Assembly (NCBI GenBank): GCA_025363295.1
Contig: JANYEC010000026.1
Location: 5,849-69,848 of the forward strand
Length of the DNA stretch: 64,000 nt
Direction of reading: 5' to 3'
Source: Akkermansiaceae bacterium
Lineage (GTDB): Bacteria > Verrucomicrobiota > Verrucomicrobiia > Verrucomicrobiales > Akkermansiaceae
Below the pieces are notes generated by a model. It did no database searches, was not told where the DNA came from, and saw only the letters and a list, made by a program, of their open reading frames with translations. Below are positions 2,145-8,501 of this stretch, piece by piece. Within the stretch, counting starts at the first letter, position 1, and every line of letters starts with the position of its first letter. The position numbers and the translations under genes were made by a program.

Positions 2145-2711
2145 TCATTTCCTCCTCGTCATCCCCGGAGGCAGGCCATCGGATTTGGGATCGGGTTGAG
2201 TGGTGGTGGCACCCTCGCCGGGACCGGGGGAGAACCATTTGAGTTGGGCGCTCTCGAGTGCAGTCCATTTTCCGCCCGTTTGTTCTACGGTGATGCCGGA
2301 GGGAAACAGGCCGTGGCCGAAGAGTTGCCATTTATCCCAAGCATTTGTTTTGCGGTTCCAAGTGCGGCTGGCATCGCATGACAGGGAGACAAAACAGCGT
2401 TTCGAAATGCCGTTGAGCTTGTCCGCGTCGTTGACGGGCTGGCTTGTGATGGATTTGATCACAAGCCCTTTCCACTCGACTTGCTGATTTCCGGAGACGG
2501 AGCAGATAGCGGTCTGGCTGCCGTCAGGGTGGAAGGTGACGTGTTTGTTCAGCAGTCCCGTGGCGGCAGCGAGGGCATCGGATTGGTCCTTCTCAGAAAC
2601 CGGTGCAAGACTTAAGAAGGCGGATTTCACCCCTTGGGCAAACATTTTCGCAGGATCGATCTGGGCGTAAGCGGTGGCGGCCAAGATATACAGCAATGGC
2701 AAGAATCTCAT
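2145..2711 (-). CDS. secreted hypothetical protein
   Basis: 188-aa ORF with signal peptide MRFLPLLYILAATAYA; no family recognised. Confidence 0.7.
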   Translation of the reverse strand: MRFLPLLYILAATAYAQIDPAKMFAQGVKSAFLSLAPVSEKDQSDALAAATGLLNKHVTFHPDGSQTAICSVSGNQQVEWKGLVIKSITSQPVNDADKLNGISKRCFVSLSCDASRTWNRKTNAWDKWQLFGHGLFPSGITVEQTGGKWTALESAQLKWFSPGPGEGATTTQPDPKSDGLPPGMTRRK

Positions 2712-2921
2712 GGCGGGAGGAAACCTTCATTGGTTAGGAAAAGCAATCCGCATCTGGAAAGGTGTGCCTTTGAGCATCGCCAAATGAAAAACGCCCTCGG
2801 GATATAAATGAGGAGCCACGACGCTCCTTACTTCGTGAGCCGATGGGTGGAGAAACGGAAGCGCCAGAGCCACCCGGCTTTCGCAAATCATCGACTGGCG
2901 AAATGAATTTCGCGGTCTGGC

Positions 2922-3740
2922 TTATTTCTGGCAGACTGGGCACCAGTAGGTGGCGCGCTGGCCTAACACGGCGTGGCGGATCGGCGCGCCGCAAACGCGA
3001 CAGGGCTCATTTTTTCTATCATAAACATAGAGCCGTTGTTTGAAATAGCCCGGCTCGCCATCAGAGTTTAGGAAATCCCGCAAGGTGGTGCCGCCTTCTT
3101 GGATTGCATCGGTTAGAACCGCGCGGATTGCTGCGACGAGCTTTGTAATCCGTGGTTTCGAAAGCTTGTTCGCTGGCGTCTGGGGGCGAATGCCCGCGCG
3201 AAACAGAGATTCCGACGCGTAGATGTTTCCCACGCCCACTACAACTTTCGAATCCATGATTACCTGCTTAATCGCGGCGGAACGTTTCTGGCAGAAACCG
3301 TGCAGATAGGATTCGGTGAATTCGTTTTCCAAAGGCTCAGGGCCTAGAGAACTTAACAAAACATGCGACATCGGATCATTTTCTGTCAGACGCAGCACCA
3401 ACCCGAAGCGCCGGGGATCATGAAAACGCAGTTGCTTGCCATTTTCTAACCTAATACCCACATGGTCATGTTTTTTCCAAACATCCGCCGGGTCGATCAC
3501 CCGCAGACTGCCCGACATACCCAGATGAATCAGCAGCGTCGTGCCATCATCGATGTCTAGCAACAGGTATTTCGAACGTCGCCGCACCGCAAGGATGCAT
3601 CGCCCTTCGAGAATGATAATGCAGGGAGAAACCGGTTGGCGCAAATCGTATCGGCGCACGATGACTTCTGTGACACGCGCACCCACCACGTGCGGCTCAA
3701 TTCCCCGGCGGGTGGTTTCGACTTCGGGGAGTTCGGGCAT
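2922..3740 (-). CDS. mutM: formamidopyrimidine-DNA glycosylase
   Basis: N-terminal PELPEVE, HLGMSG, GVGNIYASE (H2TH) and C-terminal zinc finger CRVC...CPVCQ. Confidence 0.97.
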   Translation of the reverse strand: MPELPEVETTRRGIEPHVVGARVTEVIVRRYDLRQPVSPCIIILEGRCILAVRRRSKYLLLDIDDGTTLLIHLGMSGSLRVIDPADVWKKHDHVGIRLENGKQLRFHDPRRFGLVLRLTENDPMSHVLLSSLGPEPLENEFTESYLHGFCQKRSAAIKQVIMDSKVVVGVGNIYASESLFRAGIRPQTPANKLSKPRITKLVAAIRAVLTDAIQEGGTTLRDFLNSDGEPGYFKQRLYVYDRKNEPCRVCGAPIRHAVLGQRATYWCPVCQK

Positions 3741-3743
3741 AAT

Positions 3744-4394
3744 TCAAGGAAGAACGTAAAGCATCACCGCCAGCACATGACAGACACTCCCACCTAACAC
3801 AAACAAATGCCAGATGGCATGATTGAACGGCAGTCGGTTCCAGGCATAGAAAACAATTCCGAATGAATAGGTAAAACCACCGGCGACCAGAAGCCATACG
3901 CCAGGAGATGGCATTTCGCGGATCAGCGGCTTCATCGCAAATAATATCAGCCAGCCCATCGCCAGATAGAGCGCAGTGGAAATCCAGTGGGATTTTTTCT
4001 CCTTCCGCAGGGTTTTCACTAACACCCCTACAATCGCCAGTGACCAAACGATGCCAAAAAGCCACCATCCCGATGCGCCGTGCAGAGTGACGAGGGTGAC
4101 CGGCGTGTAGGACCCGGCGATGAGCAGATAGATGCACGCATGATCTAATACTTGAAAGTGCGCCTTCCACCGCGGCGAGGTGAAGCAGTGATAGAGCGTG
4201 GATGATAGATACAACACAATCAGGGAAAGCCCGAAAACCACTGCAGCCACAATTTTTAATGGTTCCCTCCCAGCAAGGACGATCATGATGACCAATGCGA
4301 CGATGCTCAAAAGTGTCCCCGCGGCGTGGGTCAGCATGCTCGCCACCTCTTCGCGATGGGAGTCACACAAATGAGAACGATCAGAAGTTTGCAA
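3744..4394 (-). CDS. hemolysin III / PAQR family membrane protein (start uncertain; track ORF extends to 4577)
   Basis: EEVASMLTH, SSTLYH, LDHACIYLLIAGSYTP and HAIWHLFV motifs; multiple TM segments. Confidence 0.92.
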   Translation of the reverse strand: MQTSDRSHLCDSHREEVASMLTHAAGTLLSIVALVIMIVLAGREPLKIVAAVVFGLSLIVLYLSSTLYHCFTSPRWKAHFQVLDHACIYLLIAGSYTPVTLVTLHGASGWWLFGIVWSLAIVGVLVKTLRKEKKSHWISTALYLAMGWLILFAMKPLIREMPSPGVWLLVAGGFTYSFGIVFYAWNRLPFNHAIWHLFVLGGSVCHVLAVMLYVLP

Positions 4395-4554
4395 AATAAA
4401 TCTGTGCCCCCTCTCAGTGCCGCAGGACGCGCCGCTTGTCCAGCCGATGCATGAAGTCGGTTCAGCCCTTCGAGGTGTCGTTTTCCCGAATATGACTGCA
4501 AAACACCCGATGCTTGCGCTCCGGCCACTGGAGTCGTAAATACCGTGCGTCCCA

Positions 4555-6243
4555 ATGCCAAACCCCTCCGTCTTCATCAGCTATGCGAGAGCGGACGAGG
4601 CGACGGCTTATCGCATTTGCGAAGAACTCGAACACCGTGCCATTTCCTGCTGGATCGCTCCCCGCAACGTGCCACCGGGGATGGATTATGGGCAGGCAAT
4701 CATGGACGGCATCAAAAATTGCCCGGTGATGCTCGTGATGCTTTCTGAGGATTCCGGGCAATCTCGATACGTCGGCCGCGAAGTGGAACGCGCCGTCACC
4801 CACGATGCCAAATTGCTGCCGGTTCGACTCGCAAACATCCAAATTCCCGAACGCTTGGAATTTTTTCTAGGCTCCTGCCAATGGTTCGATCTTTTCCATC
4901 CACAAGATGAGCGCCGCTTGGCGGATTTGTGTGACTCCGTAAGCCGCTTGCTGGACCCAGGAAGCCGACCACCTGTTAGCTATGAGGGAAAGCCAAAAAC
5001 AATCGCTCCATCCCCCTCCACCCCAGCGAAAGGATCGCGGAAAATCATCGCCTCGCTTGCACTTCTCGCCGTCTTGCTTTCAGCAGGATTGGCGTGGAAA
5101 TTTCTCCCTCGTGGCCCATCTCAACCGGGATCACTCACTGATCCTATCCATGCCAAAGTCGCTCTGATAGGTCCTGAAAATGGCGCGAACTGCCTGGGCA
5201 GCACCCAGCTTGAATGGTCCGAAACTGGCCTCCAAGAATCTCTGCTCGATGGCTTCGAGGTGGAGATCACTCAGCCCGGAAAGCTGCCTGTGGTGAACCG
5301 CACCGGCATCCGTTATTCCTTCCGGCCTCAACAGATTTCCGGCGAATTGGACTGGCGTGTCCGGCCAATTTACAACGATGGCAAGTTCGGGAAATGGAGC
5401 GAGCAGCGGAAAATCATCCAAGATCAGGACGCCCTCAGCCGCATCCTCCGCACCCATGAGCTGCACCTAGGCCATGCCGAGAGCGGCAACAATTTCATCA
5501 ATGGCGAAAGCGCCACCTTGAGCGGCTTCGATGTTGATCTAGCAAAGGAGCTCATCACCCGCATCCTCCGCCGTCGTGATCCCTCGGCCACTCTCAAGCT
5601 GGTCCCGCACGCCACCCGCTGGACCCGCCCCGGACCCGATGGGAAACCTATCTATTTCCTGGGCCTGCTCCAGCGCGACGAGTCGGTGGACATCCTCGCA
5701 TCCGGCATCTCTATCACCTCCCAGCGCGAGCGGGACGGACTGGCCTTCACCACGCCCGTCCTCATCTATCCACAGACCCTGATCACCCCGAAAAATGCGC
5801 CGGGATTTAACGATGGAAAGCCTGTGTTCCAAAAGCTCGGTGCCGTCGATGGTACCACGAACATGGTGCTCGCCCACCAAATCGAGAAGAATGCCCAGGA
5901 CGTCACCGTGTTGCCTTTCACCGGCTCTGGAGCCCATGAGAAAATGCTCGAAGCCCTCTTCGAATCCCGCCAGATCGACGCTTGTCTCGTCGATAAACCC
6001 CTCGCCATCAAAAAGATTAAAAGCTTCCAAGGTAACGACGCCGACGTGGAATACAATGCCATTGATATCCGCGAGTTAGACGGTAAGTCCATCGCGCCCG
6101 AGCGCATCGGCTTCGCCCTCCGTCCGGGCGACAAGGCACTACGCGAAGCACTCAACCGTGAGATTGCGGACACGACCGAGCTCCGCCGCGATCTCGTGAA
6201 AAAGTATTTCCCCATGCTCGATCCGCTAACGGAAGTCCCCTAA
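4555..6243 (+). CDS. TIR domain - TM - FN3/Ig-like - family 3 solute-binding domain protein
   Basis: N-terminal VFISYARAD...WIAPRNVPPG.DY...SRYVGREVERA (TIR_2), TM IIASLALLAVLLSAGLAW, beta-rich LEW...WRVRP...GKWS segment, then GFDVDLAKEL...SITSQRE...GFALRPGD (SBP_bac_3-like). Confidence 0.85.
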   Translation: MPNPSVFISYARADEATAYRICEELEHRAISCWIAPRNVPPGMDYGQAIMDGIKNCPVMLVMLSEDSGQSRYVGREVERAVTHDAKLLPVRLANIQIPERLEFFLGSCQWFDLFHPQDERRLADLCDSVSRLLDPGSRPPVSYEGKPKTIAPSPSTPAKGSRKIIASLALLAVLLSAGLAWKFLPRGPSQPGSLTDPIHAKVALIGPENGANCLGSTQLEWSETGLQESLLDGFEVEITQPGKLPVVNRTGIRYSFRPQQISGELDWRVRPIYNDGKFGKWSEQRKIIQDQDALSRILRTHELHLGHAESGNNFINGESATLSGFDVDLAKELITRILRRRDPSATLKLVPHATRWTRPGPDGKPIYFLGLLQRDESVDILASGISITSQRERDGLAFTTPVLIYPQTLITPKNAPGFNDGKPVFQKLGAVDGTTNMVLAHQIEKNAQDVTVLPFTGSGAHEKMLEALFESRQIDACLVDKPLAIKKIKSFQGNDADVEYNAIDIRELDGKSIAPERIGFALRPGDKALREALNREIADTTELRRDLVKKYFPMLDPLTEVP

Positions 6244-6302: not shown

Positions 6303-6704
6303 TTACTCTTCCAAAAGCACTTCCGAAGTGATTAGTAAGATGACTCGATCTTCCACAAAAGCTCGGCCTTCGATGACTACCTTGTTCATCCGAGGGACCA
6401 ATTCAACGATTTTGACTTCGAGAAGGACATCATCTCCGGGGCGCGCCGCTGCCTTAAATCGAACGTTCAGTGATCGCGCCACGGACCCCTGACCTGGCAG
6501 CTTGGTGGCGAGCAACGCGGAGAAAAACCCCACCAGCAAGACCCCGTGTGCAATGATCCCGCCAAACCGCGGCTCGGCATAAGCCGGGTCGGTGTGCAAC
6601 GGATTATGGTCTCCGGTGACGTCCGCAAAAGCGGCGATGAGTTCAGGAGTGATGCGAACGGTCTGGCTGGCCGTCTGGCCGATAACGAGTTCTGAGTATT
6701 TCAT
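6303..6704 (-). CDS. MaoC family (R)-specific enoyl-CoA hydratase
   Basis: FADVTGDHNPLHTD and IAHG motifs. Confidence 0.9.
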   Translation of the reverse strand: MKYSELVIGQTASQTVRITPELIAAFADVTGDHNPLHTDPAYAEPRFGGIIAHGVLLVGFFSALLATKLPGQGSVARSLNVRFKAAARPGDDVLLEVKIVELVPRMNKVVIEGRAFVEDRVILLITSEVLLEE

Positions 6705-7416: not shown

Positions 7417-7526
7417 TGTGTTGAAAATCGTGATTCTGAAAAATCAGCCGCCGGGGTATTTGCTCTAGCGGCCTTTTTCTAGCAAAAAACCAACACCTTG
7501 CGCCACCCCTCGCAAAGTCATTTTCG

Positions 7527-8501
7527 TTGAAACGCTTTTTCCAATCTGAGGCGGGTGCTGCCGTGGTGTGGGTTCTTTCTTCTCTACTGTTAGCAGCCAT
7601 TCTCGCACCATGGGTTTATCAAGGAGGTAAAGCTCTGGCTGCGGCAGCAGCATCGCAAGACCTTCCTGGGCTTCTGGAGTGGCTGGGCGCCGCTTGTGGG
7701 AAATCCAAGTTTGCTAGATTTTACAGCCGCTCCCTGTCATTTTCCGCATTGGTATTCTTGCCTTTCCTCTACCGCCGCATTCGGCAACTGCGTGTTGGAG
7801 ATGACCATAGAAAATCCACGAATGCGCTAACACCGTGGAAATCCGCTCCGCTTCAAATTCTAACAGGAATTCTGATTTCGGCTGGCCTGCTCTTGATCTT
7901 GGTCATGGTGCTTCGGGAGCTCCGCGTTTACACGCTCGACCCCGATCCTCCGAGACTCCCCAAATTCCTCGCGGCAGTTCTCATTCCCACGGTGGCGGCA
8001 TCGCTCATGGAGGAATGGGTGTTTCGCGGACTTCTCTTAGGTCTGTGGTTGAAATCCTCACGCCCGCTGATGGCGTGTGTGGGGACCTCGCTCCTTTTCG
8101 CGTTTCTGCATTTTCTGGAGCCACCAGTCGGGTTCGCCATTCTTGATCCAAGTGCCCCAACGGCGGGCTTTCAACTGTTAGGCCGCATCCTTTTTCACTT
8201 CGCGGATCCCCAGTTTTTCGTGACAGATTTCGCCACGCTGTTTGTCGTGGGAATGATCCTCGCCTGGGCGCGGTTGCGTACGGGGGCGCTGTGGTTTTCG
8301 ATCGGACTTCATGCCGGTTGGGTCATGGTGTTCAAGATTTGCAATCTACTTTATGTCGATACCCCGGATCACCCTTTGCACCCGTGGGGAGTGGGAAAAA
8401 ACATCCGCTCTGGTTTGTTACCGATGATTACACTAGGGCTTACTGCCGTGCTTTGCCACTTCGCTCTGAGGCGCTTTGGGACGCAGCGAAAAAGCGTCTA
8501 A
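7527..8501 (+). CDS. CPBP (Abi/CAAX) family intramembrane metalloprotease
   Basis: EEWVFRG, FAFLH and IGLHAGW motifs; multi-TM. TTG start. Confidence 0.88.
   Translation: MKRFFQSEAGAAVVWVLSSLLLAAILAPWVYQGGKALAAAAASQDLPGLLEWLGAACGKSKFARFYSRSLSFSALVFLPFLYRRIRQLRVGDDHRKSTNALTPWKSAPLQILTGILISAGLLLILVMVLRELRVYTLDPDPPRLPKFLAAVLIPTVAASLMEEWVFRGLLLGLWLKSSRPLMACVGTSLLFAFLHFLEPPVGFAILDPSAPTAGFQLLGRILFHFADPQFFVTDFATLFVVGMILAWARLRTGALWFSIGLHAGWVMVFKICNLLYVDTPDHPLHPWGVGKNIRSGLLPMITLGLTAVLCHFALRRFGTQRKSV

Follow-up and report, generated by a model that had tools for sequence, protein, structure and literature searches.

What does a bacterial protein do that joins a TIR domain, through a single membrane helix, to a domain of the family 3 solute-binding protein (SBP) type? 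The question is raised by a gene at positions 4555-6243 of a 64,000-nucleotide stretch of contig JANYEC010000026.1 (Akkermansiaceae bacterium, assembly GCA_025363295.1), referred to below, at its full length, as the window. The initial annotation, made from the letters of the DNA, had proposed that the product, here called the TIR-SBP protein, is a one-component receptor in which an external ligand drives TIR oligomerisation. The receptor part of that idea gains support from our analysis, since the residues that bind an alpha-amino acid are conserved and the same ectodomain is fused elsewhere to Hanks-type kinases. With slightly better than even confidence, we read the protein as a ligand-gated, transmembrane, receptor-type TIR signal generator belonging to a Thoeris type VII-like pathway whose genes are split in this genome. 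The gene and its parts are as follows, with model confidence given as the predicted local distance difference test (pLDDT) score and selection as the ratio of nonsynonymous to synonymous substitution (dN/dS).

4555-6243 (+): whole gene, one intact open reading frame (ORF) of 562 codons and 562 amino acids (aa), in the order TIR, linker, transmembrane (TM) helix, FN3-like domain, SBP3 domain
4555-4959 (+): predicted cytoplasmic TIR domain, residues 1-135 (Pfam TIR_2; model pLDDT ~90; dN/dS 0.06-0.08)
4780-4782 (+): codon of Glu76, candidate catalytic glutamate in the motif Y-V-G-R-E-V (conservation; alignment to Cat1 and TIR-STING)
4786-4788 (+): codon of Glu78, kept in 35 of 38 family members
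4960-5040 (+): Pro-rich, disordered, predicted cytoplasmic linker, residues 136-162 (pLDDT <50; 7 Pro in 29 residues; dN/dS 0.4-0.7)
5041-5103 (+): single TM helix, residues 163-183 (hydropathy; model helix 163-182; positive-inside bias)
5164-5424 (+): predicted periplasmic seven-strand FN3-like stalk domain, residues 204-290 (model strands, pLDDT ~90; weak profile matches)
5425-6240 (+): predicted periplasmic family-3 (polar amino acid type) SBP domain with both lobes, residues 291-562 (Pfam, PDB profile, Foldseek)
5710-5727 (+): S386...R391, equivalent to LAO/HisJ S72 and R77, the putative alpha-carboxylate clamp (profile-guided alignment with E. coli ArgT and HisJ)
5854-5862 (+): T434-T435-N436, equivalent to LAO S120-T121-Q122 (each kept in 37 of 38 members)
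5992-5994 (+): D480, equivalent to LAO/HisJ D161, putative alpha-ammonium binding (kept in 38 of 38 members)

The two ends of the protein are assigned with confidence. Pfam TIR_2 (PF13676) matches residues 6-124 with an E-value of 8.3e-23 (81.6 bits against a cut-off of 28), and SBP_bac_3 scores 36.9 bits, above its gathering cut-off of 26.4. A profile of the family, compared with the PDB, matches full-length amino-acid-binding proteins (AncCDT-1, E 1.2e-25, profile positions 278-536) and, separately, the TIR domain of Cat1, which is the closest solved relative of the TIR domain by sequence; a profile of the closer family, A1, found no PDB match at E <= 1e-12. The AlphaFold2 model built from a 38-sequence family alignment reaches a mean pLDDT of 85 (a single-sequence prediction gave 35) and contains a TIR fold (residues 1-133), a disordered linker (140-162), a helix (163-182), a seven-strand beta domain (204-290) and a two-lobe alpha/beta domain (293-555). 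When the full-length model was searched against the PDB with Foldseek, the top 50 matches were exclusively polar-amino-acid SBPs, with target-normalised TM-scores of up to 0.79; as it returned SBPs alone, the search is uninformative on the TIR and FN3 parts. Thus the N-terminal TIR domain, the Pro-rich linker, the single TM segment and the C-terminal SBP fold named in the initial annotation are all borne out.

The middle of the ectodomain, annotated earlier as FN3- or Ig-like, is the part that is only half secured. The model gives it a confident seven-strand beta fold, whereas the profile matches taken alone are weak. Comparison of this part with the PDB gave 18 such matches (E 0.007-0.6), 17 of which are FN3 domains of class I cytokine receptors and the weakest of which is a de novo designed protein. 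In these weak alignments the bacterial G-x-W-S-E falls on the WSxWS motif of class I cytokine receptors, and the W-R-V-R strand lines up with the strand-F arginines of the leptin receptor and gp130. A Pfam search of 22 middle-domain sequences returned nothing relevant. Because the domain has no Pfam match and only weak PDB profile matches, we call it FN3-like, not FN3. P207, W221, G263 and W281 are invariant in it, and W267-R-V-R270 and S282 are nearly so.

The TIR-SBP protein has no signal peptide, and its TIR domain is N-terminal. The sole hydropathy window with a mean above 1.6 covers residues 163-183. Among 37 family members, the 15 residues flanking the TM helix hold on average 3.95 Lys and Arg on the N-terminal side against 1.81 on the C-terminal side; the N-terminal side is the richer in 28 of the 37, and the C-terminal side in none. 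This bias predicts that the TIR domain is cytoplasmic and that the FN3-like and SBP domains are periplasmic, as in a type II single-pass inner-membrane protein. The two end domains are therefore placed on opposite sides of the membrane, in agreement with the annotated topology.

If the SBP domain faces the periplasm, does it still bind a ligand? E. coli ArgT (LAO) and HisJ (K-12) were aligned to the SBP alignment of the family, whose 38 members extend down to 25% identity. The counterparts of LAO/HisJ R77 and D161, R391 and D480, are present in 38 of 38 members. S72 is matched by S386 (Ser in 35 of 38 and Thr in the other three), and S120, T121, Q122 and S70 by T434, T435, N436 and G384, respectively, each kept in 37 of 38. 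The positions that choose among side chains have changed: D11 gives way to A308 and Y14 to G311, and LAO F52 maps to an insertion of ~20 residues, peculiar to this family, that follows W356. What the LAO residues do is established by structural studies, with which the PDB titles of the LAO mutants D11A, Y14A, S70A, S72A, R77A, Q122A and D161A agree. We infer that the ligand is a compound with a free alpha-amino-acid moiety; the side-chain pocket is specific to this family.

The company that this ectodomain keeps suggests what it is for. In the exhaustive search, the FN3-SBP3 module with the same invariant residues turned up in uncharacterised Hanks-type Ser/Thr kinases (P0146 and P0177), where a TM helix precedes it, as well as in P0136, a protein with a different N terminus. 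P0139 and P0141 have the order TIR-TM-OpuAC-FN3-SBP3, with two flytrap-type domains in tandem. As the ectodomain is common to Ser/Thr kinases, a sensor role is supported and the TIR domain would be its regulated output. That TIR appears to occupy the position of the kinase in paralogous receptors is the strongest comparative argument for a regulated output. Kinases, chemoreceptors and cyclases are all known to use SBP-type domains for sensing (PMC8050422; GlnH-PknG, PMC6069109; BvgS, PMC5829827), and the review of SBP signalling among these sources (PMC8050422) leaves TIR unmentioned.

On the output side, Glu76 lies in the SRYVGREVERA segment singled out by the initial annotation. It is kept by 37 of the 38 members of the family, and its counterpart, E75 in A4 numbering, does not vary among the 86 nearest TIR relatives. 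The structures of Cat1 and TIR-STING have, at the aligned position, the Glu of the W-C-x-x-E-L-type motif, and we take Glu76 to correspond to the W-V-H-K-E-I motif around SARM1 E642. A catalytic role is known for SARM1 E642 and for the corresponding Glu of bacterial TIR NADases, which makes Glu76 the candidate catalytic residue. Since Glu76 is near-invariant and aligned to the Glu of Cat1 and TIR-STING, enzymatic competence of the TIR domain is plausible.

The TIR domain is far from isolated. At E < 1e-3 the exhaustive search returned 25,387 representatives, of which 11,451 remain at E < 1e-10; almost all of them matched by way of the TIR domain. In 76 of the 86 nearest relatives a hydrophobic segment with a positive-inside bias lies 25-60 residues past the TIR domain, and the C-terminal tails of these relatives, 60 to ~490 residues long, carry TPR (18), DUF6273 (6), LCCL (4), NHL and other domains. 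Judged by these matches, the domain belongs to a very large, membrane-anchored bacterial clade. The studied assembly (3.48 Mb in 114 contigs) contains one TIR gene in total.

Which protein could such a TIR domain act on? In an 86%-identical relative (contigs L001/L002), the TIR gene lies tail-to-tail with the gene for a 471-aa SLATT protein. The segment of L001 inserted between HlyIII and NTP_transferase holds a PIN-like ORF, the TIR-SBP gene and the SLATT gene; in relatives without the TIR-SBP and SLATT genes the site is empty. The PIN-like ORF, which encodes 120-129 aa with a weak PIN match, lies between HlyIII and the TIR gene (7426-7788 (+) in L001 and 2215-2604 (+) in L002) and is absent from the window. 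The studied genome has a close counterpart of the SLATT gene on another contig.

C66:26635-28050 (that is, locus L096 1495-2913; L107 12636-14054): P0269, candidate effector of 472 aa, 87% identical to the L001 gene

On C66, P0269 adjoins the same NTP_transferase-MFS genes and lies 785 bp from the contig end. The protein scores 46.5 bits with NCBIfam SLATT_1 (cut-off 41) and has a second, weaker SLATT_3/DUF4231-like unit; it contains approximately four hydrophobic helices and two SLATT-like 2-TM units. Ahead of these stands a conserved N-terminal domain of ~185 aa with invariant GHR, SAAxGAD and GxGGTxE motifs. The SAAAGAD and GLGGTAE motifs may be SLOG/LOG/DprA-like, a conjecture that the searches did not confirm. 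Stand-alone proteins of ~200 aa homologous to this domain alone are common in the genus (G207, G158, G102, G189, G176, G134, G177, G170, G152, G166, G156 and G182).

Hidden Markov models of both parts of P0269 were searched against 87 loci. Apart from L001/L002, 73 of these loci have a membrane TIR from outside the family, and in ~20 of the 73, spread over Acidobacteriota, Chloroflexota, Verrucomicrobiota, Proteobacteria and others, a P0269-like gene lies within 6 kb of the TIR gene. Eight loci, with the TIR gene at about 6001 in each, have it directly beside that gene and in the same orientation (L017, L019, L042, L044, L066, L073, L078 and L087); in L020 the two genes converge, as they do in L001. 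Adjacent pairs are separated by 4-109 bp or overlap, with the P0269-like gene either after or before the TIR gene; in L017 the N-terminal domain of the P0269 type lies inside a 793-aa protein without TM helices. Fifty of these genomes, taken as the baseline (223 Mb), contain only 38 copies of the N-domain family; 11-13 copies lie inside the sampled loci, where ~0.1 would be expected by chance. These counts argue for a strong link between the TIR clade and SLATT proteins; for this particular gene the link is weaker.

TIR-SLATT gene neighbourhoods were noted by the Aravind group (PMC9503650), and TIR plus SLATT is now the experimentally validated Thoeris type VII, with canonical cyclic ADP-ribose (cADPR) as its signal (Yirmiya et al., preprint 10.64898/2025.12.03.692087). 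The earlier statement that the gene does not look like Thoeris thus holds at this locus and is too strong overall, as the TIR clade is linked to SLATT effectors and the pair is adjacent in L001/L002.

Putting these elements together, we propose the following sequence, each step of which is inferred. An amino acid or amino-acid-containing ligand would bind and close the periplasmic flytrap. Closure would alter the packing of the ectodomain, FN3-like stalk and TM helix between neighboring receptors, and this packing would in turn control the TIR-TIR association that known bacterial TIR enzymes require. The active TIR domain would then cleave NAD+. Because the gene pair is conserved, the output proposed as most likely is a cyclic-ADPR-type messenger that acts on the SLATT effector P0269, as in Thoeris type VII, and the cell would then lose membrane integrity or stop growing; direct depletion of NAD+ would be the fallback output. 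Ligand binding may switch the enzyme either on or off, and the cue may be nutritional or a danger signal. The complete chain of outside-in signaling is unlikely to hold as drawn: a periplasmic small molecule (an amino acid, or a product of the envelope or of lysis that bears one) acting through TIR and a cyclic-ADPR-type messenger to open the unlinked SLATT channel P0269, with a sensor module interchangeable with that of Ser/Thr kinases.

Several observations weigh against the ligand-gated, SLATT-coupled receptor. On the protein side, the aromatic residue four before Glu76 is only semi-conserved (Tyr in 19, His in 10 and Gln in 6 sequences of the family alignment). SBPs are usually monomeric, and transmission of flytrap closure by one TM helix is hard to explain. 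As for P0269, its N-terminal domain, which is presumed to sense the messenger, gave nothing in Pfam, NCBIfam or PADLOC and no significant PDB profile match, and hhalign comparison with E. coli DprA and PpnN gave probabilities below 1%.

The genomic points concern the pairing itself. The TIR and SLATT genes are unlinked here, in G164, which has the same split arrangement, and in G171; within the FN3-SBP clade they are adjacent in one lineage alone, that of L001/L002. In the genus, P0269 is found in 2 of 2 genomes with the TIR-SBP gene and in 6 of 59 without it, a comparison confounded by phylogeny, and two of those six genomes are >90% complete. Of four Chthoniobacterales genomes that carry the TIR-SBP gene, one lacks any homolog of P0269, and co-presence in close relatives may reflect shared ancestry. 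Close orthologs of P0269 on other contigs adjoin a PD-(D/E)XK protein of ~910 aa, not a TIR gene, which weakens the link for this gene. In L110 (7485-10232), L112 (3444-6167) and L105 (4226-6970), this PDDEXK_1 gene is directly downstream of the P0269 ortholog and co-oriented with it.

Could the protein, then, act on its own? As a ligand-gated, stand-alone enzyme of suicide or dormancy, it would deplete NAD+ with neither messenger nor partner, and the SLATT protein would be unrelated. We consider this improbable, although the mobility of the gene speaks for it. The TIR-SBP gene occurs in at least eight genomic contexts, and its neighbors change in almost every lineage: MutM-HlyIII and MaoC in the window, and elsewhere UvrC and PEPCK, PurH, glutathione peroxidase and lipocalin, LeuA, or LptF/G (Chthoniobacterales). 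No neighbor conserved across its clades was found. The Chthoniobacterales loci do share LptF/G, YkuD-like, FAD-oxidoreductase and MMPL genes, plausibly through shared ancestry. Same-genus genomes without the TIR gene have HlyIII directly adjoining the NTP_transferase-MFS pair, an empty site that, together with the varied neighbors, shows the gene to be accessory and mobile as a single unit, monocistronic in the window. A gene that travels alone through so many contexts fits a self-sufficient enzyme, as do the unlinked SLATT gene and its presence in genomes that lack the TIR gene. NADase activity is known for many TIR proteins encoded by a single gene, SpbK and AbTIR among them (PMC12847820; PDB 8g83). 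Against it stand the strong cross-phylum association of the TIR clade with P0269-like genes and the adjacency of the two genes in L001/L002.

Somewhat less probable still is a Thoeris-like role against phages, in which the TIR protein, like ThsB, would detect infection on the cytoplasmic side and its FN3-SBP part would anchor it at the envelope without gating it. The distribution of the gene is indeed patchy, as would suit a defense gene. A word-index search found 19 full-length homologs (33-93% identity) and the exhaustive search ~20 further, more distant representatives (25-39%), ~40 full-length in all; they make up ~20 clusters at 50% identity, all in Verrucomicrobiota. Among 151 species sampled from the GTDB family, one has the full-length gene, and among 61 genomes of the genus two have it, the studied one and G164; other carriers are a Verrucomicrobiales metagenome-assembled genome (MAG; 85% identity) and six Chthoniobacterales/Spartobacteria MAGs (34-36%). 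The insertion in L001, at the conserved HlyIII-NTP_transferase junction with PIN-like and SLATT genes, points the same way, and cADPR production is strictly phage-dependent in validated type VII systems (preprint 10.64898/2025.12.03.692087).

The ectodomain itself argues against a passive anchor. Its ligand-site residues are near-invariant, and Ser/Thr kinases, themselves bona fide receivers of signals, carry it too. Measured against relatives in which synonymous divergence is unsaturated (dS 0.6-1.1), dN/dS is 0.06-0.08 for the TIR domain, 0.08-0.17 for the FN3-like domain, 0.09 for the SBP domain and 0.4-0.7 for the linker; strong purifying selection thus acts on each of the three folded domains. 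Among more distant relatives it is the SBP domain that is best conserved, with 72-76% identity against 67-70% for TIR. As the most conserved domain, it bears little resemblance to what would be expected of an arms-race receptor for variable phage proteins. Furthermore, the flanks of the gene are mostly housekeeping genes rather than defense islands, and PADLOC returned only weak TIR-level matches for the TIR-SBP protein and no other model.

Much more doubtful is a non-enzymatic TIR scaffold that, like the animal Toll-like receptor adaptors, recruits a cytoplasmic partner upon ligand binding. TIR domains can signal through assembly alone (PMC7075850), and the aromatic residue before Glu76 is variable. 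The near-invariance of Glu76 in the family, and its invariance in the 86 relatives, speak against a scaffold, and with one TIR protein in the genome there is no TIR partner. In addition, bacterial TIR domains so far tested are largely enzymes, as Essuman reportedly found in 2018. Last, an SBP tethered to the membrane to feed an ABC importer, with TIR incidental, is very improbable: tethered SBPs exist, and two homologs are named 'ABC-type amino acid transport substrate-binding protein' by the Joint Genome Institute (JGI), but no ABC permease or ATPase gene adjoins the TIR-SBP gene in any of 14 loci (the window and 13 related ones), the NCBIfam transporter-SBP models (LAO, HisJ, EhuB) score far under their cut-offs, and the 135-residue TIR domain is under strong purifying selection, all of which agrees with the earlier view that the protein does not look like a transporter.

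The neighbors of the gene in the window are MutM, HlyIII, a MaoC dehydratase, a peroxiredoxin and a CPBP protease, and, as annotated, neither ThsA nor an ABC permease is adjacent. The two flanking genes are the following.

3744-4352 (-): HlyIII-family membrane protein, a neighbor and not part of the system, divergent from the TIR gene
6303-6704 (-): MaoC-like dehydratase, a neighbor convergent with the TIR gene; the SLATT gene takes this place in L001

The gene therefore has a divergent neighbor upstream and a convergent one downstream, and the HlyIII-TIR junction is common to relatives at 86-93% identity. The longest hemolysin-III ORF, 3744-4577 (-) with 277 aa, overlaps the TIR start codon; the lengths of its homologs (197-216 aa) and the Pfam match indicate that the real start probably lies near 4352, leaving an intergenic region of ~200 bp. 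This region has no sigma-70-like promoter match, and a scan for promoters and terminators gave results at or below chance.

Among the homologs, one from a Spartobacteria MAG (palsa_1395; L015 5986-7577) is broken into ORFs of 275 and 147 aa and is either a pseudogene or an assembly error. On a JGI metagenome contig (L006), an 865-aa TIR-WD40 protein is encoded at 2576-5173 (-), two genes upstream of a TIR-FN3-SBP homolog. A search of the studied genome for a ThsA (SIR2-SLOG) effector found none. The lone SIR2_2 match was rejected as a ThsA-type effector, as it belongs to a SIR2-HerA pair on contig C83. That pair (425 and 643 aa, with strong PADLOC matches) lies in a defense island at 5200-10891 of C83 (locus L094), together with a truncated, type I restriction HsdR-like ORF and a DNA cytosine methyltransferase gene that runs off the contig. 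A search of the genome for Macro domains, with working controls, also found none; the SAVED search gave no match, but its control matched nowhere either and the result is uninformative.

How does the protein compare with known systems? Like Thoeris type VII (ThsB TIR and ThsH SLATT), it has a TIR domain with the conserved Glu that is paired, at the level of the clade, with a multi-TM SLATT effector. Unlike in type VII, the TIR domain is apparently membrane-anchored with a periplasmic FN3-SBP part, the SLATT protein has the extra ~185-aa N-terminal domain and two 2-TM units, and the genes are on different contigs. Anti-phage activity and cADPR have been demonstrated for type VII; the present system is known from its genes. 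With respect to Thoeris of any type, an adjacent effector is seen only in the relatives L001/L002 and not in the window, whereas a SLATT effector in the same genome (P0269) and the clade-level association are both present. By analogy, the TIR-SBP protein may work like a Thoeris ThsB joined to a Venus-flytrap receptor.

The BvgS/EvgS kinases and the GlnH-GlnX-PknG pathway (PMC5829827, PMC6069109) likewise use an extracytoplasmic family-3 SBP-type domain for sensing and not for transport. They differ in that their output is a kinase and not a TIR domain, and in having helical linkers and PAS domains where the TIR-SBP protein has a single TM helix and an FN3-like stalk.

The layout also recalls the Toll-like, IL-1 and IL-17 receptors, with a single pass, the sensor outside and TIR inside, and the membrane-proximal beta domain may resemble cytokine-receptor FN3. 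The annotation had called the architecture Toll-receptor-like, which is apt as an analogy of layout. Members of the Toll-like/IL-1 receptor family are type I proteins with an LRR or Ig ectodomain and a C-terminal TIR domain; here the polarity is inverted (a type II protein with TIR at the N terminus), and the ectodomain has no kinship with LRR or Ig. Moreover, TIR is an adaptor in the animal receptors and probably an enzyme here. The resemblance is convergent. The closest kin are the bacterial proteins with an N-terminal TIR domain, a TM helix and a variable ectodomain (TPR, TolB-like, DUF6273, LCCL, NHL, WD40), which have in common the signature VFISY...CW[IM]APR[DN]...S..V.REVERA. Within that clade, an FN3-SBP3 ectodomain of a small-molecule-binding type, with recognisable binding residues, is the mark of this small family.

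TIR signaling is common to animal, plant and bacterial immunity, and to our knowledge every characterised bacterial TIR senses intracellular events; our literature search turned up no study of transmembrane TIR receptors in bacteria. Stand-alone TIR genes were removed from the analysis in the survey by which the Thoeris types were defined, and for this reason thousands of membrane-anchored TIR proteins with extracytoplasmic domains are unstudied. The present family is the most tractable entry point to them, since it has the best-understood input domain, obvious residues to address (R391, D480 and E76) and a candidate effector, P0269. If our reading is true, it would mean transmembrane activation of a bacterial TIR enzyme and the first natural ligand for such a receptor, which would also be of practical interest as a ligand-gated NADase or messenger module for synthetic biology. 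The complete outside-in chain, should it hold, would be a Thoeris-type pathway that responds to a cue from outside and not to phage components within the cell.

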